NCBI GenBank assembly: GCA_014435945.1
Contig: GCA_014435945.1_4088.1
Source: a phage
Strand: one strand, 5' to 3'
DNA: 64,000 nt
The translations under genes were made by a program, and so were the position numbers. Shown here piece after piece: positions 163 through 61,487 of the stretch. The notes beneath the pieces were generated by a model. The model was not told the DNA's origin, did no database searches, and was given only the letters and a program-made list of their open reading frames with translations. Each line of letters starts with the position of its first letter. The stretch's first letter is position 1.

Positions 163-169
163 AAAGTAC

Positions 170-7080: not shown

Positions 7081-7081
7081 T

Positions 7082-7932: not shown

Positions 7933-8178
7933 ATGTTAAATTTTTTAAATTTCCTTATCGTCTTGTGTATTGTTCTTGGGATTGCACCATTTGTATTGTA
8001 TTTCATGGATTCAGATGAAATGCAGAAGATGAATTGCACAAGGACAGGACAGAGTAGAGAAGAGACGATTCTTATGCCTGTTACGGTTATTGTTAACAAC
8101 ATGCCCATTACAAACATGGTCCCTACCCTAACGACAACGTACCAGTACTCTTGTACAGACGGAGAGAGGTGGAGATAA
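7933..8178 (+). CDS. small membrane protein (one N-terminal TM helix)
   Basis: hydrophobic N-terminus LNFLIVLCIVLGIAPFVLYF. Confidence 0.55.
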   Translation: MLNFLNFLIVLCIVLGIAPFVLYFMDSDEMQKMNCTRTGQSREETILMPVTVIVNNMPITNMVPTLTTTYQYSCTDGERWR

Positions 8179-16900: not shown

Positions 16901-17278
16901 ATGGAAATAAAATATAAAGAATTTTGTATAGGGACATGGATGTACACGGGTGAGTTGATTACGTGTTGTAATTTGTACAAAGGTGATTTAAACTACACAA
17001 GGGGCAAGGTTATAAAGTTCTGGAATTCACAATTTTATTTAATGGATCTTGGTACTGGATTTAGTTGTAAAGCAACCGATATGCTGGACTATACCTTAAT
17101 GGATGATGCTGCACTATTTCAGGAGTCATTAGTATTTGACAAGAAGTACATCTGTACATTAGAAGAGATTGTTGAAATCCAGCGTAGAATTAAATGTATT
17201 CACAGGGAATGTATAGATAAATGGTGTAAAACTGGTGAAACTAATTTTAGTAATCATTTCAATCTAGGGGAAGAGTGA
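16901..17278 (+). CDS. hypothetical protein, paralog family 2 (LFQESLVFDKKY subgroup)
   Basis: motif DAALFQESLVFDKKY; first ATG used (ORF-track start 16865 is TTG). Confidence 0.6.
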   Translation: MEIKYKEFCIGTWMYTGELITCCNLYKGDLNYTRGKVIKFWNSQFYLMDLGTGFSCKATDMLDYTLMDDAALFQESLVFDKKYICTLEEIVEIQRRIKCIHRECIDKWCKTGETNFSNHFNLGEE

Positions 17279-17634
17279 TGGAATTTGATTTTGTAATATC
17301 AGTACATTCTTTTAAGAACAGTTTTCAGTACTTTTGTAATTTAAACAAAGGTGATTTAATGCACAGTGCAAATGAGTATATTCATTACACTCAGGGTAAA
17401 TTTACATTCATTGATTACAGTTCATTACAGTATCCGCATCAGGATATGCCGGATTATACAGTACTTGATGAGGCTGAACTATTTCAGGAGTCATTAGTAT
17501 TTGATAAGAAGTACTTGTGTACATTTGAAGAAGTAATTGCAATACAAAATGAAATGAAAGAGTATGACTCTTTGAATAAAGGCAATGTCAGTATTAATCA
17601 AGAATACAAATTCAATATAGGAATTCCAGAATGA
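17275..17634 (+). CDS. hypothetical protein, paralog family 2 (LFQESLVFDKKY subgroup)
   Basis: motif EAELFQESLVFDKKYLCTFEEV. Confidence 0.65.
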   Translation: MMEFDFVISVHSFKNSFQYFCNLNKGDLMHSANEYIHYTQGKFTFIDYSSLQYPHQDMPDYTVLDEAELFQESLVFDKKYLCTFEEVIAIQNEMKEYDSLNKGNVSINQEYKFNIGIPE

Positions 17635-17975
17635 CATTTGATTTTTCTATGTTTATACCTAAGATTAGTACTTCACTGGAAGTGTATTGCAATCTTAACA
17701 AAGGTGATTATGAACACAAAATGGATCAGTACATTAAATTTAATGGTTCTTACTTTAGCTTCATTGATTATCAGACCAAAGGAACAGTTGTAGAAAATAT
17801 GAAAGACTATACAACAGTACAGGGTGAGGCTGAAATATTTCAAGAGTCATTAATATTTGACAAGAAGTACTTGTGTACACTAGAGGAAGTAATTGAACTC
17901 CAACAGAAGATGAAAGAATATAGAAGAATCTGTATAGAGACTGATTCCAAAGATAGGTATTGTTTTAAGCTATGA
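17631..17975 (+). CDS. hypothetical protein, paralog family 2 (LFQESLVFDKKY subgroup)
   Basis: motif EAEIFQESLIFDKKYLCTLEEV. Confidence 0.65.
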   Translation: MTFDFSMFIPKISTSLEVYCNLNKGDYEHKMDQYIKFNGSYFSFIDYQTKGTVVENMKDYTTVQGEAEIFQESLIFDKKYLCTLEEVIELQQKMKEYRRICIETDSKDRYCFKL

Positions 17976-18157
17976 ATAAAAAAGAACAAATGGAATCATT
18001 CATGAATACAATGCTTCGACGATTCGTAATTGATATTAGACATAACAACAGCATTAGGAATGACATGTACTTCGGTACATATGATATTAGTGAATTGTAT
18101 ATAGCTAATATTCACATGGTGTACCGAGATTATATCAAGACACAACACAGGAGTTGA
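17972..18157 (+). CDS. hypothetical small protein
   Basis: ORF in series; no family motif. Confidence 0.45.
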   Translation: MNKKEQMESFMNTMLRRFVIDIRHNNSIRNDMYFGTYDISELYIANIHMVYRDYIKTQHRS

Positions 18158-18158
18158 T

Positions 18159-18629
18159 ATGAGTTTTGCAAGAGCATTAGAAATTGCTAAGTTAATTGAT
18201 TTATGTAAAAAGGAAATAGTACTCAATCGACTCAATGGGTATCTATTCAAGGAAGGTAAAGCTTATTGTCGAATGATATACGATGACAGTAGTGAGTACA
18301 TTCACATGTACGAAGAAAACTTAGATTCTTCTGAAACAACACTCACTGGGTGTGATGTTAATCTGGAAGATAATTACATGTACTTCTGTCGTGATGCTGA
18401 TATTTTAATACAATATACTGACATTATAACTGGTGCAGCAGAAAAACATCTTCCGTATTCAGTACTGGATAATGACTGGGGAAGTGAAGAGTTCTACTTC
18501 CAGCAGAATACTATCTACGAGGAATATGTGCTTGACAAGCTTGTCATTCTGTGGTACTTTAATAATACCGATTGTCCTAGCTTCTATCTGGACTTGGATC
18601 TACTACGAGTTATTAAAGAGGATATATGA
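18159..18629 (+). CDS. hypothetical protein, paralog family 2 (WGSEEYYFQ subgroup)
   Basis: N-terminus MSFARALEIAK; motif WGSEEFYFQQNTIYEE; LVILWYF. Confidence 0.65.
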   Translation: MSFARALEIAKLIDLCKKEIVLNRLNGYLFKEGKAYCRMIYDDSSEYIHMYEENLDSSETTLTGCDVNLEDNYMYFCRDADILIQYTDIITGAAEKHLPYSVLDNDWGSEEFYFQQNTIYEEYVLDKLVILWYFNNTDCPSFYLDLDLLRVIKEDI

Positions 18630-19066
18630 GTTTAGCAAGTGCACTTAAACTGGCACACAAAATACATCACTTCCACGATAACATAAAAAGTGGTTTCTAT
18701 GGTGATAAAGTAAGTGCATTTGGTAATGAGTATTATCTATCAGGTATAAAGACATACTCTGATGATATTTTACTTATGGGCCATGATAAAGACAATACTA
18801 TACAGTACTCTTCATGTAGTCAATATACTAGTTTTTTTGTATATATTCCAGGTACTAAGATTACTTTTGACACATCAAATACACCTGTTGACTTCGGGGT
18901 ACTTGATGGGCCGTGGGGTACTGAAGAGTATTACTTCCAACAGAGTCTTATTTTTAACCAAGAAATGCTTGATTCCTTGGTTGTTTTGTGGTACTTTAAG
19001 GAATTGAATTTTGAACCCTTCTTCCTTGACTGGGGAGCATGTGAATATTTAAGTACAGGGGATTAG
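18626..19066 (+). CDS. hypothetical protein, paralog family 2 (WGSEEYYFQ subgroup)
   Basis: motif WGTEEYYFQQSLIFNQ; VVLWYFK. Confidence 0.65.
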   Translation: MSLASALKLAHKIHHFHDNIKSGFYGDKVSAFGNEYYLSGIKTYSDDILLMGHDKDNTIQYSSCSQYTSFFVYIPGTKITFDTSNTPVDFGVLDGPWGTEEYYFQQSLIFNQEMLDSLVVLWYFKELNFEPFFLDWGACEYLSTGD

Positions 19067-19068
19067 TA

Positions 19069-19557
19069 ATGTCATTACAAAGTGCATTGAAAGAAGCAAA
19101 GAAGATTCATGAGTACATGATTATGGTACAAGAAGGTTCAGTGCCTGGTGTGTATAAAACATCTGATACTGAATTTTTTGTAAAAGACCGCGACGATTAT
19201 GATGAGTCAGAGATACATGCAGAAACGTTAGTACTACACACTGATACGGGTGATACTGATGACTGTGAATATCATATGTACAATCAGTACATTAGTTATT
19301 GTAGAGATGAAGATATTATAATTTACAGCCCTGATTACGATGATTATGACACAATCATTCCGTATTCAGTACTGGAAGGTCCGTGGGATAGTGAAGAATA
19401 TTACTTCCAGAACAGTACTGTGTACAATGAAGAAGAATTAGATGTTATTGTAATTATGTGGTACTTTAAAAGTATTGGTTCTGGTAGTTTCTATTTCGAT
19501 TATGAATACGTAGAGAATACTGTAGGGGAAGATAATGTCATTACGAAGTGCTCTTGA
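19069..19557 (+). CDS. hypothetical protein, paralog family 2 (WGSEEYYFQ subgroup)
   Basis: motif WDSEEYYFQNSTVYNEE; VIMWYFK. Confidence 0.65.
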   Translation: MSLQSALKEAKKIHEYMIMVQEGSVPGVYKTSDTEFFVKDRDDYDESEIHAETLVLHTDTGDTDDCEYHMYNQYISYCRDEDIIIYSPDYDDYDTIIPYSVLEGPWDSEEYYFQNSTVYNEEELDVIVIMWYFKSIGSGSFYFDYEYVENTVGEDNVITKCS

Positions 19558-19978
19558 TAAAGCAAAAGAACTACAGGCATATATTGAAGATATTAAGGCT
19601 GGGAAGTTCGAAGAAGTATACAAAGCCGAGAATGGTAACTACTACAAGGATATTGATTTTGCTACAACTACAGTTATTCTTGGGTTGAATTCCAAAAGTC
19701 CCGCAGATTTTTCACAATACAATCCAGATGCAGAATTTATCAGTTATGCTTATGGTGGTGAAATCCGTTTTTATAATCGCAGTAGACCGTTAAAATTGAA
19801 CTTTGAAGTACTGAAAGGTCCGTGGGATAGTGAAGAATACTACTTTCAGAATAGTACTTTGTATGATGATGAAGTAATAGATACTTTAGTTATTATGTGG
19901 TACTTTAAAAGTATTGATAGTACAAGATTTTATTTGGATTATGAATATGTACGTGAAGTATATAAGGGTAAACGATGA
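19535..19978 (+). CDS. hypothetical protein, paralog family 2 (WGSEEYYFQ subgroup)
   Basis: motif WDSEEYYFQNSTLYDDE; VIMWYFK. Confidence 0.65.
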   Translation: MSLRSALDKAKELQAYIEDIKAGKFEEVYKAENGNYYKDIDFATTTVILGLNSKSPADFSQYNPDAEFISYAYGGEIRFYNRSRPLKLNFEVLKGPWDSEEYYFQNSTLYDDEVIDTLVIMWYFKSIDSTRFYLDYEYVREVYKGKR

Positions 19979-20289
19979 AATTCTTATACAGTATTCAGTA
20001 CATTCCAGGTACAATTAGTTTAATGTATTTCTTCGATCATGATAATTTCCAGCACCTTGCCGTTAGAAGATGTAATGAATCTTTAATGATTGAATATCTT
20101 CACGATTGTGATTATATTCCTGACTTCCTTGAATGTGATTACAGAGATGATCATGAAACATTTCTTTTTCAGGAATCACTTATATGGGATAAGAGAATTA
20201 ATTTTCATGCCTTAATTGAGATACAAAAACAAGTGAAGTACTACTGGGATTACTTAATTACCCAAGAATATATAGAGATTGAAATATAA
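19975..20289 (+). CDS. hypothetical protein, paralog family 2
   Basis: motif HETFLFQESLIWDKR. Confidence 0.65.
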   Translation: MKFLYSIQYIPGTISLMYFFDHDNFQHLAVRRCNESLMIEYLHDCDYIPDFLECDYRDDHETFLFQESLIWDKRINFHALIEIQKQVKYYWDYLITQEYIEIEI

Positions 20290-20732
20290 TGTACGAAAGT
20301 GATCTTAAGCACGCTGAGGAATTAGTTAATATAGTAAAGTTCTTTCAAAATAATGTAAAGTACTTAGACGACAAAGGGGCATATATTAGTACTATAAGTG
20401 TTGGTACAGATATTCTAGGATTAGGTAATGAATATAAGTACGAGTCCCATGATTATGATTTGGAATTCAAGTACTTCGAATGGAATTCTGGAACTTTCTA
20501 TTCAATCGATGAAAGTGGGGGATACATTGAATTCACAGAAGAAGAAGTACTATTCTTAAATTCAGAATATGCTTACTTCCAGTACAGTACTATATACCCA
20601 AATAGTGCATTAAGAGCTTTAGTAGTTTTTAATGCATTTCTGAAAGAGAACTTTAATAATTCTATATTCATTGATTTAAATTATGTATATGAACTAAATC
20701 AGGTGATATATATGGAGTCCAGAAAAAAATGA
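20289..20732 (+). CDS. hypothetical protein, paralog family 2
   Basis: motif SEYAYFQYSTIYPN. Confidence 0.65.
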   Translation: MYESDLKHAEELVNIVKFFQNNVKYLDDKGAYISTISVGTDILGLGNEYKYESHDYDLEFKYFEWNSGTFYSIDESGGYIEFTEEEVLFLNSEYAYFQYSTIYPNSALRALVVFNAFLKENFNNSIFIDLNYVYELNQVIYMESRKK

Positions 20733-21175
20733 GTTACGAAAGTGCAATCAAGAAAGCAAATGATATTCTAAAAGTTGTTAAGTTCTTCAAAGAAAATCCT
20801 GAATACGTAGATGATGAACGAAGAGAAGTTTCTAATGGCACGAAGATTACAATTGATTCTTTATTTGACACTAGCAACAACAACTGTAGTACTATTGAAT
20901 TAGCATACGATTATATTTCATTGAACAGAAAATATGATGAAGTTACGATAGAGCGTCATGAGAATGAAGAATCTTTTAAAATTTCTGATATTTTATCTCT
21001 GAGTACAGAAGAAGGGTACTTCCAGGGAAGTACTGTTTATAATGAAGGAACACTAGACAATCTATGTACATTTAGTGTACTATATCAGAAGTCAGTACTG
21101 GATATATTTTATCTAGACACTGAAAAACTTGATAGGTTAGTTGATTTCGTTACTATAGAAGAGGCATCCGTTTGA
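20729..21175 (+). CDS. hypothetical protein, paralog family 2
   Basis: motif TEEGYFQGSTVYNEG. Confidence 0.65.
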   Translation: MSYESAIKKANDILKVVKFFKENPEYVDDERREVSNGTKITIDSLFDTSNNNCSTIELAYDYISLNRKYDEVTIERHENEESFKISDILSLSTEEGYFQGSTVYNEGTLDNLCTFSVLYQKSVLDIFYLDTEKLDRLVDFVTIEEASV

Positions 21176-21705
21176 GAAAAATTAACATTAATGATTATGA
21201 TGCATTACAAGATTTATCAAAAAAGATTCGCACTATCGTACCAGTACTGAAAAAATGCAGTACTGGATTAATTGATCCTAGTACAGTTATTAGTGAGAAG
21301 TACGATTTCCATAAACTGTTACAAGGGAATGGTGCATTCCAGAAGTGTGAGATACGTGAGAAACACGTCATTGATACATCATTGCTTTCAATTGGTTCAG
21401 CCGTTCATAAGAATGTTGTATACCTTGAATCCAGATCTGAAACTATTCGACAGATGACTTTTAAGAAAAAGTGTACTGAAATTGACGTGTACACTATGAT
21501 ATGGGGTTATCCAGAGTTATATCGTACTATTAATATTCCTAAGTACAATTACAATTCATTTGAAGAACAGTGCTTTCAACTATCTTGTACTGATCCTGAC
21601 TATGCTATTATTCAGTTCTATATGGAATTACAGATGGCATTTAACAGTAATTTAAATATCAATTTATTAAAGGTTGATTTCGATGAAGTATTCAAAAACA
21701 TTTAA
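21172..21705 (+). CDS. hypothetical protein, paralog family 2
   Basis: motif FEEQCFQLSCTDPD; no in-frame ATG near 5' end, so probable TTG start at 21172. Confidence 0.5.
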   Translation: MRKININDYDALQDLSKKIRTIVPVLKKCSTGLIDPSTVISEKYDFHKLLQGNGAFQKCEIREKHVIDTSLLSIGSAVHKNVVYLESRSETIRQMTFKKKCTEIDVYTMIWGYPELYRTINIPKYNYNSFEEQCFQLSCTDPDYAIIQFYMELQMAFNSNLNINLLKVDFDEVFKNI

Positions 21706-21901
21706 TCGAATTGAATACATGAGAACTGTGAGTGCAGTGTGGGACATATGGTTCACTACTAAACCAAAAATGGATTACCATGACTTTAAGCTATTGTTTT
21801 TCGTTGGCTCTAACAAACAGGATGTTGCAATGAAGGGTTATATTCAGCACTTACAGGAACTAATACAGAAGAGGGTTTATGAAAATAATAAACCAAGATG
21901 A
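21674..21901 (+). CDS. small protein, family-1-like
   Basis: motif FVGSNKQDVAMKGYIQHLQELI; start ambiguous (21674 or 21719). Confidence 0.5.
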   Translation: MISMKYSKTFNRIEYMRTVSAVWDIWFTTKPKMDYHDFKLLFFVGSNKQDVAMKGYIQHLQELIQKRVYENNKPR

Positions 21902-22070
21902 TATTGCTAAACTATTCAATATATATTCTTCTAAAATGATGCAAACCGACTCATATAGTACTGAATTCAAAGAATTAAAAGTACTGATGTATTTGGGCAC
22001 ACAGTATCAGGAACAAGTTGTTAAAGAATATATTGATTCTTTACAGAAGGATATCCGTTATGTACAATGA
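21879..22070 (+). CDS. small protein, family 1
   Basis: motif YLGTQYQEQVVKEYIDSL. Confidence 0.6.
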   Translation: MKIINQDDIAKLFNIYSSKMMQTDSYSTEFKELKVLMYLGTQYQEQVVKEYIDSLQKDIRYVQ

Positions 22071-22614
22071 ACTTGACTTGGCATTTGAGCGTGTAAAAAT
22101 CTTCATTGAAACTTATCTTATGCATGAAACTATACTGAAAACAAAAGGAATATGGTTCACTGATAAATTTCTTACTCTAGCTATGAGAGGTGGAATGAAA
22201 CATCTGTACTGCACAGATAATGCAAGAATTTCAGTACTGAATTATGATGAAAGTGTAGCATCCAGTACCAGTTTAATTTCTACATACAATGATAATGTTA
22301 TTAGTATTATGTGCAATATGAATGTCCCATCTATTTCTGTATATAAAAACTGTGATAGTTCATTGGAGTACAAGATTGAGCAGTACTTATATCCTAACAC
22401 AGAAGAAAACATCTTTCAAAATAGTCTTATGTGGGATGATACATCTACTAAGTGCATATATCTTTATAATAAATTAAAAGAGTACATTGTTGATAGTTCA
22501 ATTAGTACTGCTGTATTCAGTGTTACTGTTTTTAATGATAATCGTGAAGATATGAGTTATTACAGAGACATTGTAAGAATACATGCAATGTATAAGGATC
22601 TACTATGTTATTAA
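22060..22614 (+). CDS. hypothetical protein, paralog family 2
   Basis: motif TEENIFQNSLMWDD; start at ATG overlapping upstream stop (ORF-track start 22018). Confidence 0.6.
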   Translation: MYNELDLAFERVKIFIETYLMHETILKTKGIWFTDKFLTLAMRGGMKHLYCTDNARISVLNYDESVASSTSLISTYNDNVISIMCNMNVPSISVYKNCDSSLEYKIEQYLYPNTEENIFQNSLMWDDTSTKCIYLYNKLKEYIVDSSISTAVFSVTVFNDNREDMSYYRDIVRIHAMYKDLLCY

Positions 22615-23207
22615 ATGTAAATAAATGTTGTAGTACTGAGGTTCATTTGTATTTTAAGAAATTAGTAAATGATATTATCTATATGCAAGAAATCATTTAT
22701 CACAAAAGAATGGACTTAGAAAAAGCATTAGTTCAGTTCTCTTTTAATCTCGATGGTGATATATCGTTAGATGGTGATGGATTGCGTATAGCATTTGACG
22801 GTAATACAAATAGGGTTTTCTTTTGGATAGATAATAAATTATGTTCATCAATATGTCGTACTTTTTATAACCCTATTTCGGACTTATATCAATTGGTGTA
22901 TTCTAAAGGTGCAGTTGAAGCATCATACGGTGATAGCTTTGCACTAGGGAAGAGTATCCCATATATGCAATCATTTGATATTGAATTAGTCAGTACTGAT
23001 GAAGATGCGATGTTCACAAATGATATAACAATGCAGCGTGAATCTGCAATGAGATATATTACAAATTCTATGCATACATTCTTCGAAAGAACAGAATTTG
23101 ATAATGTGTATATAGCAAATGTAAATATTTTTACTGACCTTTGTCAGTTCTTGAGAAGTATTTTTGATTTCGATGAAAGCTATTGTAAGCTTTATACTGA
23201 GGTTTAA
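22605..23207 (+). CDS. hypothetical protein (family-2-like, motif degenerate)
   Basis: DEDAMFTNDITMQ at the equivalent position. Confidence 0.5.
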   Translation: MLLNVNKCCSTEVHLYFKKLVNDIIYMQEIIYHKRMDLEKALVQFSFNLDGDISLDGDGLRIAFDGNTNRVFFWIDNKLCSSICRTFYNPISDLYQLVYSKGAVEASYGDSFALGKSIPYMQSFDIELVSTDEDAMFTNDITMQRESAMRYITNSMHTFFERTEFDNVYIANVNIFTDLCQFLRSIFDFDESYCKLYTEV

Positions 23208-23212
23208 ATGCC

Positions 23213-23572
23213 ATGAATACCATTAGTATTACGTACTACACAACGAAAAAATACGTTTGTTGTTTACTTTCGTTAAAGACAAATGATGATATGTTTGAAA
23301 TGGCGGCATATACATTAGAATTGTCAGAAGATGGATTTCAATGTCATGAAGCGTACTCAAATACACGTGAAGATACAATTGATACTACGCTAATGCAAGA
23401 AGATGAGTTATTTCAAGAAAGTTTAGTATGGGATAAAAAATACTATTGTGATTTTGATTTTCTTTGTTTAATCCAGAAAGAAATGAAAAGGATCTTCGAC
23501 AATTATCCGGTGAAGAGATTGAGTACTAAGCCGGAGCAGTACAGGAGAATTTTATTCCGTTATGAAGACTGA
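23213..23572 (+). CDS. hypothetical protein, paralog family 2
   Basis: motif QEDELFQESLVWDKKYYC. Confidence 0.65.
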   Translation: MNTISITYYTTKKYVCCLLSLKTNDDMFEMAAYTLELSEDGFQCHEAYSNTREDTIDTTLMQEDELFQESLVWDKKYYCDFDFLCLIQKEMKRIFDNYPVKRLSTKPEQYRRILFRYED

Positions 23573-23900
23573 ATTAGTAAAAATAATGTACGCAACTCAC
23601 ACCAAGTTATTATTGGTTAAAATGGATTACAACAGAAAACATAATGAATTCTGTACATTAATCCGAAATGAGGAATCATTTACATTGCGTACAAATGATA
23701 AGCCAATGCTAACTATAAATGATTTTTCATGTTTAGATACAGGTGAATTGTTCCAGGAGTCATTAGTACTGGATAGTAGTATACATTTGGAAATTGAAGT
23801 ACTACAACAGTACCAGATACTTTTGAATCGTATTATGGAAAATTATCCATGTGAAGTTGGTGGACCAATGCAATTCAAATCAAAGATGTATGAACTATGA
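23562..23900 (+). CDS. hypothetical protein, paralog family 2
   Basis: motif DTGELFQESLVLDSS. Confidence 0.65.
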   Translation: MKTELVKIMYATHTKLLLVKMDYNRKHNEFCTLIRNEESFTLRTNDKPMLTINDFSCLDTGELFQESLVLDSSIHLEIEVLQQYQILLNRIMENYPCEVGGPMQFKSKMYEL

Positions 23901-23907
23901 GGTTAGT

Positions 23908-24441
23908 ATGTTAGATAAAATAAAGAACGAGGGAACTCTATACAATCATCTTAAGTTGGATACGTTCGAGGCAGCAATCAGTACTGCACAAGATATAATT
24001 GATATTATCAAGTACATTAAAGAAAATAAGTTAAAATGTGTGAAAACGCCAGAACGTACAATGTACAAAGATGACGACCTTCACGTATCAGTTGTTAAGC
24101 CAAAAGATAAGGATGGTAATAGAGATTTCTATAATAACAGTGGACAGTATGAATGTGAATATGATCCCGAATTTAGAGGTGGATTCATGTGCTTCAGTAA
24201 AACAGATACTTCACATGTTGAGATACGTACATTAAAAGGTCTAGGTAGATTTGAGTTCATGGATATAGAACTAAATGAAGAAAACTACTTCCAACAATCA
24301 TTACTTAATACTGAATACAATTTAGGTGTACTATTCATGTACAAGTACTTATATGAGCACTTAAATGAAGACTTCTATCTGGACTTAGAAGATTACCATT
24401 TAGTATGGAAAGAAATGGTAGAACTTCGTGAGAACTCTTGA
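23908..24441 (+). CDS. hypothetical protein, paralog family 2
   Basis: motif NEENYFQQSLLNTEY; start at ATG with GAGG RBS (ORF-track start 23851). Confidence 0.6.
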   Translation: MLDKIKNEGTLYNHLKLDTFEAAISTAQDIIDIIKYIKENKLKCVKTPERTMYKDDDLHVSVVKPKDKDGNRDFYNNSGQYECEYDPEFRGGFMCFSKTDTSHVEIRTLKGLGRFEFMDIELNEENYFQQSLLNTEYNLGVLFMYKYLYEHLNEDFYLDLEDYHLVWKEMVELRENS

Positions 24442-24467
24442 CACCCTCCAAATCTTTGTGATATAAT
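24438..24467 (+). promoter_or_regulatory. sigma70-like promoter
   Basis: TTGACA 24438-24443, 18-nt spacer, TG-extended TATAAT 24462-24467. Confidence 0.55.
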
Positions 24468-24500
24468 CTCTTTATATTAATTGTAAAGGGTTATATCACA

Positions 24501-24983
24501 ATGTCCAAAGACCTATCATTTAGCAATGCACAAAAAATCGCACAAAATATCATTAAACTTCATAAGTTCCTTTTAACAGTTAAAGAGAATATAATTCTCC
24601 CACGATGCACACTTTATGCGTACAAAAATTATTTGTCAATGAATAGCAATTTGTTGTATACTACAGATGAGAATTTCTGTGGTATTCGTGTACTTGACGA
24701 TGCACCAACAGGGGATTTTATCTCATATTGTTTCCATACATCTGATAGTTTTAAGTACTATCATCCTAGATTTAATGATGATGAATATGAATATGACACA
24801 TTTAATGTTAGATCAGAAGAAGAATTCTTCCAGTACAGTACTTTGTACAATGAGAGAATCGTGTTTAGTTCTACAATTTTTACAGTACTTAAAGATGAAC
24901 TCAATGACGCAGATGATAGATTCTATATGGATTTAAACTTCGTAGATGAAATCATTGAGTACATGGAGAAAAATGGTCTATGA
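24501..24983 (+). CDS. hypothetical protein, paralog family 2
   Basis: motif SEEEFFQYSTLYNE. Confidence 0.65.
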   Translation: MSKDLSFSNAQKIAQNIIKLHKFLLTVKENIILPRCTLYAYKNYLSMNSNLLYTTDENFCGIRVLDDAPTGDFISYCFHTSDSFKYYHPRFNDDEYEYDTFNVRSEEEFFQYSTLYNERIVFSSTIFTVLKDELNDADDRFYMDLNFVDEIIEYMEKNGL

Positions 24984-25462
24984 TTACAACAGAATATGAT
25001 TACGATGGTGTTTTAGAATTTGCATCTAACATTCATCGCATTGCAAAGGAGTTCAGAAGTCCCCAACCTTTCGGTGGAATGCCTTTTGGTGGAATGTTCC
25101 AATATGACCAATTCAGTTCAACCAAAGGAAGACTTGCCTTTAAAAATAATAGGGACAATCAAGTATATGCTGAGTACTTTGACGATAATGACTTTCATTA
25201 CAGAGGTGAATATATTTCATATTGCCAAGGGTCCGATTTGAAGATTAACATTGATACATTTAGAGATTCAGTGCTTATCCCTTACAATGAGTTAGTTTTC
25301 ATGACTGAAGAAATGTACTTCCAAGGGTCTTGTATTCATGATGCAAAAGTACTTAATGCTATATTACTTTATGGTGCACTACTTCATCATTACAAATACA
25401 AACAACGATTCTTTTTAGATTTAGATGTATACCATAAATGCGTGGATTATTTGAATGCATAA
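24980..25462 (+). CDS. hypothetical protein, paralog family 2
   Basis: motif TEEMYFQGSCIHDA; in-frame 9-nt tandem duplication encoding FGGMPFGGM. Confidence 0.65.
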   Translation: MITTEYDYDGVLEFASNIHRIAKEFRSPQPFGGMPFGGMFQYDQFSSTKGRLAFKNNRDNQVYAEYFDDNDFHYRGEYISYCQGSDLKINIDTFRDSVLIPYNELVFMTEEMYFQGSCIHDAKVLNAILLYGALLHHYKYKQRFFLDLDVYHKCVDYLNA

Positions 25463-25817
25463 TACAACAACAATTCAGTACATGACGGATGGCAATGATT
25501 GCTTTGCTTCAAGATATGAATTCACCAAGAACCATTTCGTAACCTATATCCCTGAATATAATCAGTTTTATCTACAGATTTACCAAAATGATTCATATAT
25601 GAATGAGATATATTCTGAAATAAAAATCCCTGATTATAGTACTTTATCAGAAGAGGAATTGTTTCAGGAGAGCACTGTCAATACTGAAGATGTGTACGAA
25701 CTAATGGAATACCAGAAGGTACTTAAATATTTCCATGAAGTTCAGGATATACAAATGGATAGTGTTAAAACGTGGAATTATAACACATACGAGGTAAATT
25801 ATGTTCGAAATGATTAA
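25455..25817 (+). CDS. hypothetical protein, paralog family 2
   Basis: motif SEEELFQESTVNTED. Confidence 0.65.
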   Translation: MHNTTTIQYMTDGNDCFASRYEFTKNHFVTYIPEYNQFYLQIYQNDSYMNEIYSEIKIPDYSTLSEEELFQESTVNTEDVYELMEYQKVLKYFHEVQDIQMDSVKTWNYNTYEVNYVRND

Positions 25818-26214
25818 AATTATGCAACGATGCATTGTTGACCAACATGGAATATATGGATATAGTTTAAGTGCAGCTATTGACAAAAACAAAACAACCT
25901 ATGTAAGCTATAATTCAGTACTTGGATTTGATATATTCATTGATGCCAACAATAAAATCAAACAAGCCAAGGATGTATCTATAATGACCCCTGATGAGCT
26001 ATTTCAGTACAGCTTAGTTCTGCCCACCTGTATTGATTTACAACGCCTAGGAGCTATACAGAAGGTTTTACGCGAACATAAAGTACAACCAAATAAAATT
26101 ACACACATTCCAGAAACATTCTACAAACCCATAGAAGTAGAAACACCTGATTATATGTTAAGTGATGATGAGTTCTACAAGAAACACTTCCCTGGTAAAG
26201 TTTGGAGAGACTAA
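25801..26214 (+). CDS. hypothetical protein, paralog family 2
   Basis: motif TPDELFQYSLVLPT. Confidence 0.65.
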   Translation: MFEMIKIMQRCIVDQHGIYGYSLSAAIDKNKTTYVSYNSVLGFDIFIDANNKIKQAKDVSIMTPDELFQYSLVLPTCIDLQRLGAIQKVLREHKVQPNKITHIPETFYKPIEVETPDYMLSDDEFYKKHFPGKVWRD

Positions 26215-38286: not shown

Positions 38287-39144
38287 ATGAAACTTTATCT
38301 AATCGTTGACTACAGTAAGGGTTATTATGACTACGCAGAAGAATCTGAAGGGTATTGCTCGTCTACTAATGTCAATGTACGCACCAGTAATACACATGAG
38401 CATGAATCTATTACAAACCTAAAAGATTTCATCGCATATCGAGCATTTGAAAAGAATTTCTGTCGTAGTAGATATTCGAAGTTTGAGTACCCGTTGATTG
38501 ATGTTCCTGATGAATTGATGTTCCAGTTAATGCTCACTGGAGTACAAGATTATGATTACATCGCGTACAATCACATTACTAAGAAAATTTATATCGGTAC
38601 GTCAACACATGACATTTCTATGTATGCATCATGCCCGGATGATCGAATGAAGGATAGAAATTCACGAAATTCATACAGTAGTGGTTCAGTTGGTTTAAAT
38701 GATGCATTAAATAAAAATTTATTCTTTGAGTACGAGTTTGATAATCATCGAAGGAAAAAAGACCGAGAAGATTATTGTACTGAAATTGATAGTACCAATG
38801 GATATGAAGAAGTGAAAGAAGCGTTAATGCCATATATCCTTGACAAGTACTACAAAGATTTTCAGTACTGTAGTAATTTTCTAATCCGAAATTCTATCAT
38901 AATCGGTCGTCAAAGTACTGCATTCTCTAAGTACTACAATGATTCCCCTGTTGCTGAAAATGAAAACTGTAATGTTCTCTCAATCCCACGTGAAGATATG
39001 GTATTCATGTTCACATCTTTCATTGAAGATGATGAGTTGTATGTAAAAAACAAGCACAGGTTCATGCCAAGTAAGATTGAGGTTATGAGAAGCTTAAGTG
39101 CAGATATCTTAACGAATTTCACTGAAAAAACAGAATACAACTGA
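38287..39144 (+). CDS. hypothetical protein (285 aa) with family-2 motif
   Basis: motif PDELMFQLMLTGVQD. Confidence 0.6.
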   Translation: MKLYLIVDYSKGYYDYAEESEGYCSSTNVNVRTSNTHEHESITNLKDFIAYRAFEKNFCRSRYSKFEYPLIDVPDELMFQLMLTGVQDYDYIAYNHITKKIYIGTSTHDISMYASCPDDRMKDRNSRNSYSSGSVGLNDALNKNLFFEYEFDNHRRKKDREDYCTEIDSTNGYEEVKEALMPYILDKYYKDFQYCSNFLIRNSIIIGRQSTAFSKYYNDSPVAENENCNVLSIPREDMVFMFTSFIEDDELYVKNKHRFMPSKIEVMRSLSADILTNFTEKTEYN

Positions 39145-39170
39145 GACATACCATAAGTTTATGATATAAT
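39142..39170 (+). promoter_or_regulatory. sigma70-like promoter (TGAGACATA type)
   Basis: TGAGAC 39142-39147, 17-nt spacer, TG-extended TATAAT 39165-39170; same architecture as 52730-52758. Confidence 0.4.
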
Positions 39171-39174
39171 GTAA

Positions 39175-39205
39175 GGTGACAGCAGAATATGTTGTCACCT
39201 TTTTT
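39175..39205 (+). terminator. rho-independent terminator or attenuator hairpin
   Basis: GGTGACAGC-loop-GTTGTCACC stem then TTTTTT; lies just downstream of the preceding -10 box. Confidence 0.6.
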
Positions 39206-39735
39206 AATCCTGAAAGGTTCCATATGGAAATGATTGAAGCCTAATCCACTCGAAAAGTAGAGGGTAGATGAGTAGTCCTTTCAGTACGAACAGCAAATGA
39301 AACCCGTTAGATGATGGCATAGTTTGAACCACTCACGGCAATGCGGCTGTATAAAGAACTCCAATAGGATAAAGAGAGTTCCTCGATAGACATATAAGGA
39401 TCGCACCTTACCAATTATCTAAGGGAGATTTCATGAGAAATTTGCGGTCGTAATTTATACAATATAGTTGCGTCCAAAATTCGTGAAATCAAATACAAGT
39501 ACTGGTCATATGGTATTTGTATTATGTGTCGGGATGTTTAAGACCGACGACCGTTGCTACAAGAACCGCGATAGAGAGAAACAGAGCAACCCGCTTTCGC
39601 CTCGTAAGAGAATTCGTGATATGAACTATGTGAAGGCCACCAGCGTCAAACTTTTTTTGTTCTTTCCCCTGCGGGGGGATGAAATATGCTCAAGCAAACC
39701 CCGTCAATATTAATTAAAACAAATCATAGTACTTT
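39205..39735 (+). other. non-coding region, candidate structured RNA or decayed gene remnant
   Basis: about 530 bp with stops in all frames, visibly higher GC than flanks, bounded by terminator and promoter; the only listed ORF (39468..39713) has atypical composition. Confidence 0.3.
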
Positions 39736-39737
39736 CG

Positions 39738-39766
39738 TTGAATTAGACATGCGAAGCGTGTATAAT
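39738..39766 (+). promoter_or_regulatory. sigma70-like promoter
   Basis: TTGAAT 39738-39743, 17-nt spacer, TATAAT 39761-39766. Confidence 0.5.
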
Positions 39767-39779
39767 TCGACTGGTGTTG

Positions 39780-40370
39780 ATGAAGTCAACGCCATGTACA
39801 GTCATTGATGTTTCCATAGGAATAATGATGTCATTTATTAAAAAATCTAAAAGCGTCACTTATAAAACACTAGAATTTGTTGATTCAGACAATCAGAACC
39901 AAGACCAAGAGAATTTTACTGGTTTTGTTGTGATTAAAGAAAAGGGATGTATTTCGTACATCAAAGAGTTGCAGTGCGGTTTTGAATTAACTTCCATTAA
40001 GTTATTCCCAACCAAGAAGCCTACAATTCTTAAAGCTCGTTATGGGAACTACTACGAAGAGCGTTATAGTAATAATCTAATCAGTGCGAAAGCACATATC
40101 GTCAATGGAGAACTAGAAGGAGAATATAGAAAATTCAACCCACAAGGAAAATGTGTTTGGGTTAAATACTTCAATTCAGGAAATGATGTAACATCAGAAA
40201 TTATTGAGTTTTTAGGTTTAACATGTACCCTTGAAACTCTTCATGATTACAAATTTAATACTGAAGAAGAGTTTAATCTGATGATGCGTTATGGATCACA
40301 TTTTAAATTTTTATATGAATACAACATTGACAGTAGTACTTTTGATGACATAGTACTTAACTGTCTATAA
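39780..40370 (+). CDS. hypothetical protein
   Basis: ORF-track ORF 39774 begins with GTG; first ATG is 39780, alternative ATG 39825. Confidence 0.55.
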   Translation: MKSTPCTVIDVSIGIMMSFIKKSKSVTYKTLEFVDSDNQNQDQENFTGFVVIKEKGCISYIKELQCGFELTSIKLFPTKKPTILKARYGNYYEERYSNNLISAKAHIVNGELEGEYRKFNPQGKCVWVKYFNSGNDVTSEIIEFLGLTCTLETLHDYKFNTEEEFNLMMRYGSHFKFLYEYNIDSSTFDDIVLNCL

Positions 40371-44971: not shown

Positions 44972-45245
44972 ATCGAATGAAGTACTTGTTGCTGAAACAA
45001 TGAAGATGGTTTATGCCATAACAACTAGTAATGATATGTCTTACCCAATTAAGTCCAAGTTGAGGGATATAACTCTTCAGGTTATACAGCAGTACTACAA
45101 ATCTAAACACAAAAGTATTATTAATGTTTATCGTGACTATGAAAGGATTCGCATTTTGTTCTGGAACAAGAATCGAGTTCGTTCGGAATGTGATATAGAA
45201 AACTTTAAATTTGAGAATCTTTATTGTTACAGAGCGGGACAATAG
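44961..45245 (+). CDS. hypothetical protein
   Basis: ORF-track ORF 44943 trimmed to ATG overlapping upstream stop. Confidence 0.55.
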   Translation: MANKSNEVLVAETMKMVYAITTSNDMSYPIKSKLRDITLQVIQQYYKSKHKSIINVYRDYERIRILFWNKNRVRSECDIENFKFENLYCYRAGQ

Positions 45246-45263
45246 CTCAAGTAGTGATATAAT
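45236..45263 (+). promoter_or_regulatory. possible promoter (extended -10 only)
   Basis: TG-extended TATAAT 45258-45263; weak -35 GGGACA. Confidence 0.35.
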
Positions 45264-48207: not shown

Positions 48208-49346
48208 CCCTTTTACAAATATATGAAGATTTAATGCACTTATGTAATACCCGTGAGGCTTTCTTTTATGTGGATCATAAAAGTCCTGCTGGTGGAACAT
48301 ATCGTGTATTCAGTTATCGTCTAGCATCATATACCGATTTCATGCAACCCAATGCATTAGAAACCCGTGGTTCTATGTGGGAAATTGATGAAGACGGTGA
48401 TATGATTCGTTGTGCTGCTCGTACTATGAAAAAGTTCTTCAATGCTTACGAAAATCCTGCTACAATGTTCCCTGCTGATACCTCATTCGATGACATTGCA
48501 GTAGTGATGCCTAAGTTGGATGGTTCAGTAATCAGTACTTACCGTGATAATGATGGTGTAATTCGTTGTAAATCACATACTGCATTGTATTCAGATCATG
48601 CGATTAACAGTACTCGTCTTCTCAATGAGAACCAAAATTTGTATCAATACATTGACGAAGCAGACCGTTTGGGCTATACTGTTAATCTGGAGTATACAAG
48701 TCCAGAGTACCGTATTGTATTACCATACCAGGTTGAACAATTATTTGTACTAAACGTTCGCCATCGCAAGAGTGGTGAACTATTATGTGGTTCTGCATTA
48801 CGTAATAAGTTCCCATGCCTTGCACAGTACAGTACTAACATGACAGGTAAAGATATTCATTACACTTTCCCTGCTCGTGCTACATTCAAAGAAAGTGTTG
48901 AAGAAGTTAAGAAAATGCTTGACATTGAAGGTTTTGTGTGCATCCTAAATAATGGTACAATGTGCAAAATCAAAACCGACTGGTATTGTTCTTTGCATTT
49001 AACGAAAGACAGTATTATAATCGATTCCCATTTATATGAAGCTGTATTAAATGGTTCGAGTGATGATTTAAAACAGTTGTTCAGTACTGACGAATATGCT
49101 ACCCAAAAGATATTAAGAATGGAACAACTAGTCTTTTCGTGCTATAATGCTTTACAAGATGAAGTTGAAAGCTTCGTCAAGGAACACAAGCACTTGGAGC
49201 GAAAGGAATTCGCTAAGAAGGTTCAGGAGTGTTTAACTAATGAACTGAATCGTCAGGGCTTGGCCTTTGCAATGTACAACAATAAGAAAGTCGATTACAA
49301 AGAGACTCTTATTAAGTACATGAAAATTGTACTAAAGGATTTTTAG
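48204..49346 (+). CDS. rnlA: RNA ligase 1 (T4 RnlA-like)
   Basis: N-terminal region ...CNTREAFFYVDHKSPAGGTYRVFSYRLASYTDFMQPNALETRGSMWEID closely parallels T4 RnlA; nucleotidyltransferase motif I KLDGS. Confidence 0.85.
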   Translation: MTLLQIYEDLMHLCNTREAFFYVDHKSPAGGTYRVFSYRLASYTDFMQPNALETRGSMWEIDEDGDMIRCAARTMKKFFNAYENPATMFPADTSFDDIAVVMPKLDGSVISTYRDNDGVIRCKSHTALYSDHAINSTRLLNENQNLYQYIDEADRLGYTVNLEYTSPEYRIVLPYQVEQLFVLNVRHRKSGELLCGSALRNKFPCLAQYSTNMTGKDIHYTFPARATFKESVEEVKKMLDIEGFVCILNNGTMCKIKTDWYCSLHLTKDSIIIDSHLYEAVLNGSSDDLKQLFSTDEYATQKILRMEQLVFSCYNALQDEVESFVKEHKHLERKEFAKKVQECLTNELNRQGLAFAMYNNKKVDYKETLIKYMKIVLKDF

Positions 49347-52426: not shown

Positions 52427-52732
52427 ATGGATATACAAACATTCAATAAACTAAAGTACTATGACAATGGTTTTGCTATTATCATTGATGAACTAGATGG
52501 AATACCATATGAGTATCATAATGATGTAATGAAGATAGTAAAAAGTATTTGTAATGATTTAAAAACTATTTTCGAAAATGAATATGTATACGACTTAGGT
52601 ACAAACAATAAGAAACTATACATAAAGAAATTCTGTGGAACGCATTGTGGTCTGATGGTTGATTTAGGTTTAAGTGCTGACAACAATTTCGAAGCATGTA
52701 GTTTATATCTGGATGAAATGCGAATCTCATGA
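52427..52732 (+). CDS. hypothetical small protein
   Basis: ATG directly follows upstream TAA. Confidence 0.55.
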   Translation: MDIQTFNKLKYYDNGFAIIIDELDGIPYEYHNDVMKIVKSICNDLKTIFENEYVYDLGTNNKKLYIKKFCGTHCGLMVDLGLSADNNFEACSLYLDEMRIS

Positions 52733-52758
52733 GACATATCTTGATTCGGTGATATAAT
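52730..52758 (+). promoter_or_regulatory. sigma70-like promoter (TGAGACATA type)
   Basis: TGAGAC at about 52730, TG-extended TATAAT 52753-52758. Confidence 0.4.
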
Positions 52759-54496: not shown

Positions 54497-55240
54497 ATGA
54501 AACATTTTTTGGAAATTACAGTACCGGATGATAAAGATTTATATATCGTTGGTGATTTACACGGCAATGGAAAACTGTGGGATGCTACCAAGAAAGAATT
54601 TGGTATCACCAATAATGACTATGTTTTTTGTGTAGGTGATGTTATTGACCGTGGTGACCAGAATTCCAAACTACTATTTGAATTCCTTTTCGGTGAAAAC
54701 CGTTTTATGATTGCTGGGAACCACGAGATCATGTGTGTTGATTCTGAAACTCACCGTGACTGGCATCACTGTTGGGTACAAAATGGTGGAGATAAGTTCA
54801 TTGATGAAGTTGGTGAGACAGGTATACAGTTCTTCCGTCAGTACTTAAAGGATCTCCCTATGATTATCCAAATCAATCACCGAGGATTGAAGATTGGTCT
54901 AGTTCATGCTGGTGTTCCATTGGAATATACCACATGGGAACGTTTCGTTAGTGGGACAAAATCACTTAGTGCTGATATAATTGAGAAGTGCTTGTGGGAC
55001 CGTGATACATTCGACTACTGCAAGAAAAATAACACATATTACGTCCCTAGACTTGATGGCATCCATTGCGTCTTTAGTGGTCATACCGCAGTATCCGACC
55101 CACTCATCTACGGTAATCGTATCTGGATTGATAGTCAGTTTTTAACTGGTGATTTGACTCTTGCAACTCCCCAAAGTGGCGGGATGAGATACTTACGTAA
55201 AGAAAAAGATGAGTATTCATTTAACCGCTTCAAAAGGTAA
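54497..55240 (+). CDS. Ser/Thr protein phosphatase (PPP-family metallophosphoesterase, lambda-PPase-like)
   Basis: GDLHG, GDVIDRG and GNHE metallophosphatase motifs in canonical order; start at ATG just after upstream TAA. Confidence 0.75.
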   Translation: MKHFLEITVPDDKDLYIVGDLHGNGKLWDATKKEFGITNNDYVFCVGDVIDRGDQNSKLLFEFLFGENRFMIAGNHEIMCVDSETHRDWHHCWVQNGGDKFIDEVGETGIQFFRQYLKDLPMIIQINHRGLKIGLVHAGVPLEYTTWERFVSGTKSLSADIIEKCLWDRDTFDYCKKNNTYYVPRLDGIHCVFSGHTAVSDPLIYGNRIWIDSQFLTGDLTLATPQSGGMRYLRKEKDEYSFNRFKR

Positions 55241-60449: not shown

Positions 60450-61145
60450 ATGGTTGAACAATTCAATTTTGGTGGTTATGCTGGTGGTGAAGTTCGCAAC
60501 ATTTCTATTCCTTATGTAGTTGAAAAAGTTAATGGTGCAGAACGTACTTATGACCTAGCATCTCGTATGATGCAAGACCGTATCATTTTCCTTGATACTG
60601 ACTTCAATGACCAAATGGCACATATCATCAAGCAACAATTGGTGTGGTTGGATTCTCAGGGTTCGGAACCAATTACCTTCTACATTAGTTCTCCTGGTGG
60701 TTCAGTACACGCAGGTTTGGGTATCGCTGACATTGCTAAGTCTTGTGTATCTCCTATCCGTACAGTAGTAATGGGTTATGCAGCATCAATGGGTTGTTAT
60801 ACTCAATCAGTAGTTGGTACTAAAGGTTTCCGTCTAGGCGGGAAGCGTTCTTACTTCATGTGTCACCAAGTAAGTTCTGGTACTCAGGGTTTGATTACTG
60901 ACCAGAAGATTTCTTTGAAACACTCTGACGCATTGAACACACTACTAACTAAAGAAATTGCTGAAGCAGTTGGTGTATCACACGAACAACTACTGAAAGA
61001 TGCGGACCGTGACCTGTGGTTGAACGCTGAAGAAGCACTCGAATACGGCGAACATGGTTTCATTGATGGTATCATCCTTGGACCACGCAACGAAGAAGGT
61101 AAGTATCTCGTCAAACGTCGCGGCGGCGTGGAAGAGTGGGTCTAA
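60450..61145 (+). CDS. ClpP-family serine protease homolog
   Basis: YISSPGGSV, GYAASMGCY (Ser) and MCHQVSSG (His) match the ClpP core; GAGGAAAA RBS. Confidence 0.8.
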   Translation: MVEQFNFGGYAGGEVRNISIPYVVEKVNGAERTYDLASRMMQDRIIFLDTDFNDQMAHIIKQQLVWLDSQGSEPITFYISSPGGSVHAGLGIADIAKSCVSPIRTVVMGYAASMGCYTQSVVGTKGFRLGGKRSYFMCHQVSSGTQGLITDQKISLKHSDALNTLLTKEIAEAVGVSHEQLLKDADRDLWLNAEEALEYGEHGFIDGIILGPRNEEGKYLVKRRGGVEEWV

Positions 61146-61196
61146 TTTGAATTTCATTTGATGCCTCATTTGGGGCATCTTATTTCTGGAGATTAT

Positions 61197-61487
61197 ATGA
61201 AAGTTCTTGTACGTAATAATACTGAAGTCAATGATGTGTTGGATGATTCAGAGTTTATTAATGTCGCATTAGATCAGATTAGTGCAGTAGCTCTTGAATT
61301 GAAAGGTGTTGACGAGGCAGAACGAGTACTCAATGGTTTTTCTATTGTTCTCGAACTAATGCAAGAAGTTCTTATTAAAAAGAACATTAATCCAATTAAC
61401 GCAGTTCAACACGCAGAAGCTATGCGTCAAGAACATGGCACATTCTCAGATAAAAAATTCATCAGTACTGACGAGGGGAAAGAATAA
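61197..61487 (+). CDS. hypothetical protein
   Basis: ORF-track ORF 61158 trimmed to ATG with GGAG RBS. Confidence 0.55.
   Translation: MKVLVRNNTEVNDVLDDSEFINVALDQISAVALELKGVDEAERVLNGFSIVLELMQEVLIKKNINPINAVQHAEAMRQEHGTFSDKKFISTDEGKE

Follow-up and report, generated by a model that had tools for sequence, protein, structure and literature searches.

Introduction

Few large RNAs with intricate, conserved folds are known, and each of them, from ribosomal RNA, RNase P, the group I and group II introns, and tmRNA to OLE, GOLLD, and ROOL, has opened new biology. GOLLD and ROOL are reported to act as folded RNAs that form homo-oligomers (PMC12286853). Long noncoding RNAs (lncRNAs) have also been reported from phage PA5oct, a distant relative of the phages considered below, in which ncRNA001–004 are supported by RNA-seq, measure 0.24–0.62 kb, and lie on the + strand (PMC7318152). 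Here, we describe an element in a 64,000-nt stretch of phage DNA (contig GCA_014435945.1_4088.1; "the window" denotes this whole stretch) that is almost certainly a self-contained gene, with its own promoter, for an RNA of ~500 nt. This predicted RNA presents a new combination of features: a length of ~500 nt, two pseudoknots, ~100 invariant positions, four to five ancient paralogs per genome, and capture by bacterial genomic islands.

A Conserved Noncoding Region in Jumbo Phages

The open reading frame (ORF) upstream of the element terminates at 39144, and an ATG at 39825 or 39828 is the first plausible start after it, leaving a gap with no gene in which the longest ORF comprises 81 aa and begins with TTG. 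The initial annotation, made from the letters of the window, had described a noncoding island of ~560 bp at this place; the absence of a gene stands, and the gap is in fact ~680 bp long. Carefully annotated relatives leave the same stretch blank. The island was also said to be richer in GC than its surroundings, and the GC content of positions 39206–39705 is indeed 0.420 against a window mean of 0.335 (standard deviation 0.033), which corresponds to the 98.5th percentile of 500-nt windows; further 500-nt windows with a GC content of at least 0.42 are found at 1–600, ~54701–55200, and 60551–61250. The individual signals reported for the locus are all present, at or within a few bases of where they had been placed. 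Consensus scans returned 8 promoter-like sites where 8.8 were expected, that is, the chance level, and 2 terminator-like sites where 0.9 were expected; the features of the locus are significant because they are kept in more than 60 homologs, and not by consensus matches alone.

Searches with the element and its flanks (751 bases) place the window among the Asteriusvirus jumbo phages (121Q/PBECO4 group), which match with 93–99.7% identity, Escherichia phage vB_Ec-M-J (OQ718158.1) being the best match. The 495-nt core of the element (39206–39700) matches 62 phage records with 65–99% identity at 273 places, four or five per record, and these phages include Asteriusvirus, Mimasvirus (GAP32, CBB, and XbC2), Eneladusvirus (Serratia phage BF and Yersinia phage fHe-Yen9-04), the Salmonella phages Munch and 7t3, and Erwinia phages. 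When a 7-kb region was compared with GAP32, the RNA gave the longest and most significant nucleotide alignment. Both this repetition within genomes and the sharing with bacterial islands described below go beyond the initial annotation.

A Conserved Fold with Compensatory Changes

To analyze structure, we used sets of 38 to 70 nonredundant homologs, including an alignment, A3, of 38 sequences that are mutually less than 98% identical. Alignments A1–A3 consist of long invariant blocks between stems that differ in sequence and retain their complementarity. RNAalifold predicted 72 pairs from 38 sequences, 44 of them with double changes, and two pseudoknots emerged from an all-against-all covariation screen of 65 sequences. 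The resulting model has 13 helices (P1–P13) and pseudoknots PK1 and PK2, with 87 pairs in total, and its body spans ~39206–39707 on the + strand; because G-U pairs are frequent, the + strand is the strand that folds. In A3, 96.6% of 3125 cells are paired, compared with 40–43% when the partners are slid by one to three columns, and 64 of the 87 pairs have changed on both sides; none of 500 shuffles reached any of the observed measures. The 3' domain gave an equal result on 70 sequences that include a divergent subfamily.

Approximately 100 nucleotides are invariant, mostly in junctions and loops, among them the blocks GAUGAG, GAUAGAnAUAU, UAAGGGA, GACCGU, AGAAAC, and ACCCGCUU. A modular hairpin with the loop UACAAUAUAG occurs zero, one, or two times per copy, at two different helices. 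A conserved reading frame is absent, and among 65 nonredundant homologs the median length of the longest stop-free stretch is 55 aa. Of the options offered by the initial annotation, it is thus the structured noncoding RNA that is borne out, by covariation, by two pseudoknots, by a conserved promoter of its own, and by the four to five paralogs per genome; the folding and covariation analysis against homologous phage regions that it had proposed reveals a conserved fold with compensatory changes, and the outcomes that it had named as fatal, an ordinary protein-coding gene or a lack of conservation, are contradicted by the missing frame and the strong conservation. In kind, though not by family membership, the element is a large ornate phage RNA, as it exceeds 400 nt, has covarying helices and pseudoknots, lacks an ORF, and is located in phages.

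The RNA begins with a 5' leader (39206–39240; alignment A3, columns 10–60) that contains the conserved motif AAUCCUGAAAGG (family consensus AAyyCUGnnUGr) and a hairpin at 39218–39229 whose sequence is different in every lineage and whose self-complementarity is kept. The P1 hairpin (39241–39267) has a conserved loop, GAAAA(n)GUA, and is paired in 93% of cells, with two-sided changes at seven of eight pairs. It is followed by the P2 hairpin (39272–39287; 100% paired, three of four pairs covarying), which carries a T-loop-like UUCAA in most copies and has the invariant GAUGAG just 5' of it. P3 (39290–39294 with 39346–39350) encloses P4 (39304–39307 with 39335–39338); both are 100% paired, with covariation at three of five and one of four pairs, respectively, and in some paralogs a longer insert replaces the internal hairpin of P3/P4. 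All six pairs of the P5 hairpin (39356–39381) covary. The next segment (39385–39426) holds the invariant single strands GAUAGAnAUAU and UAAGGGA (39420–39426) on either side of P6 (39395–39398 with 39407–39410; 98.7% paired), and AAGGGAG is kept even in the divergent subfamily, type B, that is described below. P7 (39427–39490) is a stem around the optional modular hairpin; its main helix covaries at seven of seven pairs, two inner pairs are weaker, and the modular hairpin is missing from some copies and has a second occurrence inside P12 in others.

The long P8 hairpin (39492–39523) covaries at 11 of 12 pairs, and at all 12 in the 70-sequence alignment, and its loop (UCAUAU, 39506–39511) supplies the 5' strand of PK2. 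After the P9 hairpin (39527–39549; five of six pairs covarying), PK1 (39553–39590) joins GUUGC (39553–39557) to GCAAC in the loop of P11 (39586–39590); three of its five pairs covary, and it is 100% paired in 38 as well as in 69 distinct sequences. The three-way core (39567–39618) is formed by P10 (39567–39571 with 39614–39618), P11 (39574–39578 with 39594–39598), and P12 (39601–39603 with 39608–39610, GUAA loop), which are 97.4–100% paired and all show covariation; the invariant AGAAAC and ACCCGCUU lie within it. With the covariance model R1, which was built on the P10/P11/P12 core domain, the window copy scores 116 bits. The 3' strand of PK2, AUAUGA, directly follows (39619–39624); all six pairs with the P8 loop covary, and they are 100% and 99.5% paired. 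The four paralogs of one genome have the PK2 strands UCAUAU/AUAUGA, UCGAAU/AUUCGA, UUGUAU/AUACAA, and UUGCAU/AUGCAA (alignment A1), so that each copy matches itself. In the modeled structure, PK1 locks the P10/P11/P12 core, and PK2 joins the P8 loop with the strand 3' of P10.

Toward the 3' end, the alignment contains the first CGUCA(A/G) repeat, DR1, which is followed by a run of seven U (39641–39658). A T-run of at least five follows DR1 in 30 of 53 copies, with a hairpin ahead of it in about half of those. The last conserved block (39660–39707) consists of the GC hairpin P13, UUCUUUCCCC UGC GGGGGGAUGAA (39660–39683), and the second repeat, DR2, CCCCGUCAA (39699–39707); 98.4% of P13 cells are paired, and all changes in this helix are one-sided (G-U), the DR2 columns are invariant, and the short GC hairpin CCCCTGCGGGG / CCCCUGCGGGG noticed earlier lies within P13. 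Beyond the body, a 3' tail (39729–39798, + strand) contains two GAA-triloop hairpins (39747–39761 and 39776–39790), and similar hairpins follow most family members. Hairpins with a C-GNA-G triloop and tandem G-A pairs (GAACGnAGUGA; UUGACAnnCGnAGnnUGGCAA) are found 3' of most copies, islands included (e.g., L017:940-1060), and these triloop motifs are not enriched elsewhere in the window.

Three further candidates were rejected. A long-range, 3-bp pairing of GAUGAG with the CGUCAG repeats, proposed by RNAalifold, involves invariant columns, and at the sole variable position the pair is lost through a U to C change in Asteriusvirus. The modular hairpin was also considered as a palindromic kissing loop, UUGUACAA, which is not conserved, the window copy having UUAUACAA, and a mini-ORF after the Shine–Dalgarno-like UAAGGGAG is not conserved either.

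The RNA Belongs to a New Family

Rfam 15, whose families include group I and II introns, RNase P, 6S, GOLLD, ROOL, OLE, raiA, HEARO, riboswitches, and small ribozymes, produced no match at gathering thresholds in the window and none on the element across 15 homologous loci; when E values up to 10 were admitted, only chance matches appeared in the region, the best being a snoRNA (E 4.7) and Hatchet (E 9.4). ARAGORN found no tRNA or tmRNA gene in the whole window. The family is therefore new in the sense that it is absent from Rfam 15 and from the literature searched. A hammerhead ribozyme has CUGAUGA, stem II, GAAA, and a closed three-way junction with an NUH cleavage site. A local likeness to it, which consists of (C)AGAUGAG, P2, CGAA, and the GUC in the CGUCA repeats, was dismissed: P1 is a closed hairpin and P3 pairs downstream, so that the three-way junction does not form, and the Rfam hammerhead models have no match in the region. 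The PA5oct lncRNAs were likewise rejected as homologs, as they matched neither by nhmmer with --max nor by R1 with filters off. We observed that ncRNA004 of PA5oct (L259:517-1135) ends in a P13-like pyrimidine/G-run hairpin, UUCCUUCCC AAAC GGGGAGGAA, with no detectable homology.

Promoter and Transcription Unit

On the + strand, at 39142–39170, the element is preceded by TGAGACA (39142–39148), a 13-nt spacer, and the extended −10 element TGATATAAT (39162–39170), which are conserved in homologs and include the TG-extended TATAAT at 39165–39170 of the initial annotation. This arrangement corresponds to a sigma-70 extended −10 promoter of the phage TGAAACG class (TGnTATAAT with TGAAAC or TGrGAC ~13–16 nt upstream). 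A "divergent RpoD-like promoter" class with the −35 element TGAAACG has been described for CBB and GAP32, and in CBB 11 of 18 such promoters precede a block with many DNA-synthesis genes (PMC5259590); the predicted window promoter matches this class. Nearly every homolog, in phages and islands alike, has TGAAAC(G/A), TGGAACG, or TGrGACA, then ~13–16 nt, then TGnTATAAT before it, and the distance from the end of the −10 box to the P1 loop is roughly 55–105 nt across copies. Four more promoters of the form TGrGACA-N13/14-TGnTATAAT occur on the + strand of the window, at 45236–45263, 49120–49148, 52730–52758, and 54952–54981.

A hairpin with a T-run (39173–39206, + strand) lies immediately downstream of the promoter, 29 nt past the upstream stop, and the predicted start site is in its 5' arm. 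The stem, at 39173–39201 (earlier given, with the T-run, as 39175–39205), has the form of an intrinsic terminator, with 12 pairs, five of them G-C, and the T-run directly after. The order of promoter, hairpin, and T-run recurs in ten copies, the window copy and GAP32 L014, L182 among them. Presumably, this hairpin terminates the upstream gene and also comes to form the 5' terminus of the RNA. The initial annotation had concluded from this anatomy, a transcript beginning inside a terminator, that the product would be a tiny RNA or an attenuator. The anatomy itself is real and conserved in the orthologs of the window copy; the conclusion lacks support, as the covarying body lies 3' of the hairpin, other paralogs lack the hairpin, and the predicted product is ~0.5 kb long.

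Sufficient downstream sequence was available for 50 copies; in 11 of them, the unit closes with a bidirectional terminator ~170–200 nt past the second repeat and contains no ORF. These 11 group by sequence with the copies of CBB and 121Q beside endonuclease VII and are therefore stand-alone noncoding units. GAP32-type copies have no terminator between the element and the next gene. As to the second promoter that had been proposed downstream, its hexamers are present (TTGAAT-17-TATAAT, 39738–39766), but TTGAAT (39738–39743) and TATAAT (39761–39766) are the two arms of one hairpin (GAAUUA..UAAUUC), which makes a promoter function uncertain.

Paralogs, Divergent Members, and Bacterial Islands

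OQ718158.1 contains exactly four copies, all on the + strand, as determined with nhmmer and in agreement with the covariance model R1, at ~59.5 kb (the counterpart of the window copy), 112.1 kb, 196.4 kb, and 307.3 kb. The last immediately follows a gene for an RNA polymerase sigma factor. At 196.4 kb, the copy is antisense to the late genes around it, which are on the minus strand, with endonuclease VII on one side and a small gene beside the baseplate hub on the other, and CBB shows the same layout. No second copy was found within the window using blastn (word size 7), nhmmer, or the covariance model. Orthologs of Mimasvirus and Eneladusvirus are 82–98% identical, whereas paralogs in one genome are at most 65–75% identical; the duplication is therefore older than these genera, and each copy has been retained. 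OQ718158.1 also has a stretch of 1.3 kb without annotation 3' of its anaerobic ribonucleotide reductase genes (98783–100097; L003:14783-16097), in which nhmmer gave no match to the RNA.

Pattern scans extended the family beyond cultured phages. In IMG/VR, 42 loci were found, on nine contigs of roughly 350–380 kb or on shorter contigs, and a metagenome scan yielded 83 matching stretches, ~70 of which contain the element. The IMG/VR pattern GATAGANNTATN{16,32}TAAGGGA was discarded as unspecific, with 3 true loci among ~100 new ones (L055 upward) in the matches listed. The metagenomes also contain the type B subfamily (L184:9213-9443, L193:1008-1237, L216, L220, L230, and L242), in which the 3' domain, PK1, PK2, and P13 are kept, the 5' domain is different, and both CGUCAG repeats are jointly changed to CGAAG. 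One type B copy lies beside a baseplate hub gene and near a portal gene, in synteny with the 196.4-kb copy; type B was found in no cultured phage.

Single full-length copies are present in bacteria, namely, in the complete chromosome of Serratia fonticola (L254:3680-4155, NZ_CP183218.1) and in Serratia sp., Silvania hatchlandensis, Enterobacter chinensis, an Enterobacteriaceae isolate, and metagenome-assembled genomes of Buttiauxella and Enterobacteriaceae; the further loci in our collection are L253, L248, L256, L252, L244, and L246. Among 5,426 complete genomes of E. coli, two carry one copy, including strain LR-29-1 (L257:15900-26500), and no copy was found in the plasmid collection. At all bacterial loci examined, the copy is within an island of 30–40% GC in a chromosome of 55–60% GC. 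The usual order in these islands is a serine or tyrosine integrase, the RNA, and a convergent cI-like S24 repressor, with a cro-like gene next in one island, and the RNA is preceded by a promoter of the same phage type. The LR-29-1 island is ~10.7 kb long, adjoins ffs, and has no recognizable structural or replication genes. Its integrase ORF is annotated with a length of just 330 nt and has an IS3 element immediately 5' of it (L257:16737-18296), which may mean a truncated integrase and an island that no longer moves.

Apart from the RNA, islands and jumbo phages share only one short match to a DUF4326-domain protein, and the 285-aa ORF upstream of the RNA and a 286-aa island ORF are not homologous. 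Pfam and PHROGs searches with flanking and island proteins returned nothing informative except the integrase, ParB-like proteins, cI, and cro. The gene content of the islands is that of phage satellites, with an integrase and a repressor, small size, and no structural genes. Genomic islands are known to be transduced by a jumbo phage in Pseudomonas, in a paper that makes no mention of an RNA (PMC12595487). By analogy, the islands described here are candidate jumbo-phage satellites or decoy islands.

Elsewhere in the window, positions 1–8000 and 17000–26000 contain long arrays of small paralogous genes with direct-repeat families and conserved in-frame motifs such as TAGGAACAAACTATCAAGA.

Function of the RNA

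We favor the explanation that the locus is a structured RNA gene whose product acts through its fold, and we consider this moderately probable, a judgment that is a compromise between our near certainty that a gene is present and our more guarded view of how its product works. That the RNA works in trans through its fold, as part of a ribonucleoprotein or as an RNA-only assembly, we regard as plausible at somewhat under even chances. Host RNA polymerase would start ~7 nt past the −10 box. As this point is within the 5' arm of the upstream terminator, the terminator hairpin would come to lie at the 5' end of the RNA and would not stop transcription. The RNA would accumulate alongside genes that share its promoter class, which in CBB are mostly DNA-synthesis genes, and would act via its three-dimensional fold, in contrast to a message or a leader; the four or five paralogs, which diverged long ago and each have a self-matching PK2 of their own, would be nonredundant. 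A fold-dependent and probably trans-acting role is favored because the depth of constraint, with invariant junctions, two pseudoknots, and orthologs at 82–98% identity, resembles that of ribonucleoprotein RNAs, ribozymes, and RNA assemblies.

Several points weigh against this explanation. The folding z-score of the single sequence is modest (−2.0), and the expression, the ends, and the stability of the RNA in this phage group are points that we infer. Present tests do not tell action in trans from action in cis, and dispersed, syntenic, and co-oriented copies would suit a position-dependent cis function too. No partner protein was found, the flanking proteins having no Pfam or PHROG assignment, and the islands and the phage have only the RNA in common. 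Finally, many copies have a terminator-like hairpin and U-run before the conserved P13 and DR2, which action in trans leaves unexplained.

T4 origins are middle promoters, and one of them, oriE, lies among baseplate genes; oriF and oriG combine a middle promoter with a downstream unwinding element, and ColE1 RNA II is a folded transcript of ~550 nt. A cis-acting pre-primer RNA of this origin type, with each copy marking a replication origin of the 357-kb genome, is unlikely but the most serious competitor. After folding, the transcript would enter a persistent hybrid close to its G-rich 3' part (GGGGGG, 39673–39678) and then be processed to the leading-strand primer, and the one-copy islands could be replicated by an infecting jumbo phage. 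The spacing of the four copies (~53, 84, 111, and 109 kb apart) and their single orientation, even next to genes of the opposite strand, are consistent with this proposal, as is the presence of one copy among baseplate genes, like oriE. The TGAAACG promoter class, presumably a middle class, is mostly upstream of DNA-synthesis genes in CBB (PMC5259590), and jumbo phages can mobilize genomic islands (PMC12595487). The islands have no recognizable replication genes and only the RNA element in common with the phage, and hairpin clusters lie downstream of the copies. Near-invariance over ~500 nt, a T-loop-like hairpin, and two pseudoknots nevertheless far exceed known origin transcripts in elaborateness, and the element is among the most conserved DNA of its neighborhood, whereas T4 origins are not known to be conserved between relatives. 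No iterons were seen, and by eye, with no measurement of AT content, there is no clear unwinding element after DR2. We found no antisense promoter of the RNA I type, a simple scan giving no minus-strand promoter-like site inside the RNA, and the stable intramolecular fold would compete with R-loop formation.

A more speculative proposal, to which we give little credence, concerns conflict between phage and islands, in which the RNA would be a shared handle. The paralogs would assemble into a hetero-oligomeric RNA machine or scaffold required by the jumbo phage, or would mark origins that it requires, and the islands, with a single copy behind a promoter of the phage type, would plug into this machine or poison it upon infection.

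It is improbable that the element acts in cis on transcription, as a very large antiterminator like HK022 put or as a leader or attenuator. The nascent RNA would modify its own polymerase, which would then read through the following terminators into downstream genes or, in islands, antisense into the convergent cI-like gene. The element does lie directly behind a promoter and is followed by terminator-like signals, such as the T-runs after DR1; the GAP32-type copies reach the next gene with no intervening terminator, and the island RNA is directed at the cI-like gene. Against this, the 11 copies that are closed by a strong bidirectional terminator, and after which no gene follows, are those antisense to late genes, the downstream genes differ among paralogs, and the known put and EAR antitermination elements are 70–120 nt long, not 500. 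A promoter that fires into the adjacent terminator to give an RNA of ~30 nt, with the remainder as spacer, would account for the conserved promoter, hairpin, and T-run in the orthologous group of the window copy, but this is very improbable given that conservation and covariation lie 3' of the hairpin, that paralogs 2–4 and the island copies have the promoter and no such hairpin, and that the predicted start site truncates the stem. A decayed or frameshifted foreign protein-coding gene, which the elevated GC content and the 81-aa ORF might suggest, can practically be discarded in view of the missing frame across the 65 homologs, the gaps of many lengths, the compensatory substitutions in helices, the invariant blocks broken by variable stems, and the blank left by careful annotators. 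The leftover probability is assigned to functions outside these readings.

If the RNA gene is what we propose, its study could uncover a step of jumbo-phage replication or host takeover that depends on RNA and could supply a molecular link from jumbo phages to candidate satellites; the Enterobacterales islands, if the conflict proposal is true, would be the first satellites known for Rak2-like jumbo phages or else defense islands of a decoy type. The clade consists of 350-kb phages whose hosts are E. coli, Salmonella, Klebsiella, Erwinia, Yersinia, and Serratia, with paralogs in every genome, and the question is directly testable because the host is E. coli, phages are in culture, and antisense knock-down methods exist. 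Approximately 2 kb per genome, now blank or filled with spurious small ORFs, deserves annotation as RNA genes.

Comparison with Known Systems

HK022 put and other antitermination RNAs resemble the window RNA in lying just 3' of a promoter with terminators after them, and they act as nascent RNA structures. They differ in consisting of two stem-loops within 70–120 nt, and in the window family the copy antisense to late genes has no downstream gene to regulate. The phi29 pRNA is also a structural RNA encoded by a phage, and its covarying loop–loop pairs are intermolecular; PK2 of the window RNA is a 6-bp pairing of a loop with a strand that is paralog-specific and always matches its own partner. 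The pRNA, moreover, is ~170 nt long, single-copy, located beside packaging genes, and without homology to the window RNA.

ColE1 RNA II, like the window RNA, is a transcript of ~0.5 kb with its own promoter, a defined fold, and a G-run near its 3' part, and in T4 oriF and oriG a phage middle-type promoter marks the origin, with several per genome as for the window RNA. Unlike the window RNA, neither ColE1 RNA II nor the T4 origin transcripts have pseudoknots or near-invariant junctions.

The nearest likeness in kind is to GOLLD and ROOL (RF01998 and RF03087), which are also several hundred nucleotides long, contain many conserved helices and pseudoknots, belong to phages or prophages, and lack an associated ORF. 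The window RNA is set apart from them by the lack of any match in sequence or structure, by the lack of adjoining tRNA genes, and by its gammaproteobacterial hosts; it is represented by four to five diverged paralogs per genome rather than by one, and it also occurs in small integrative islands.

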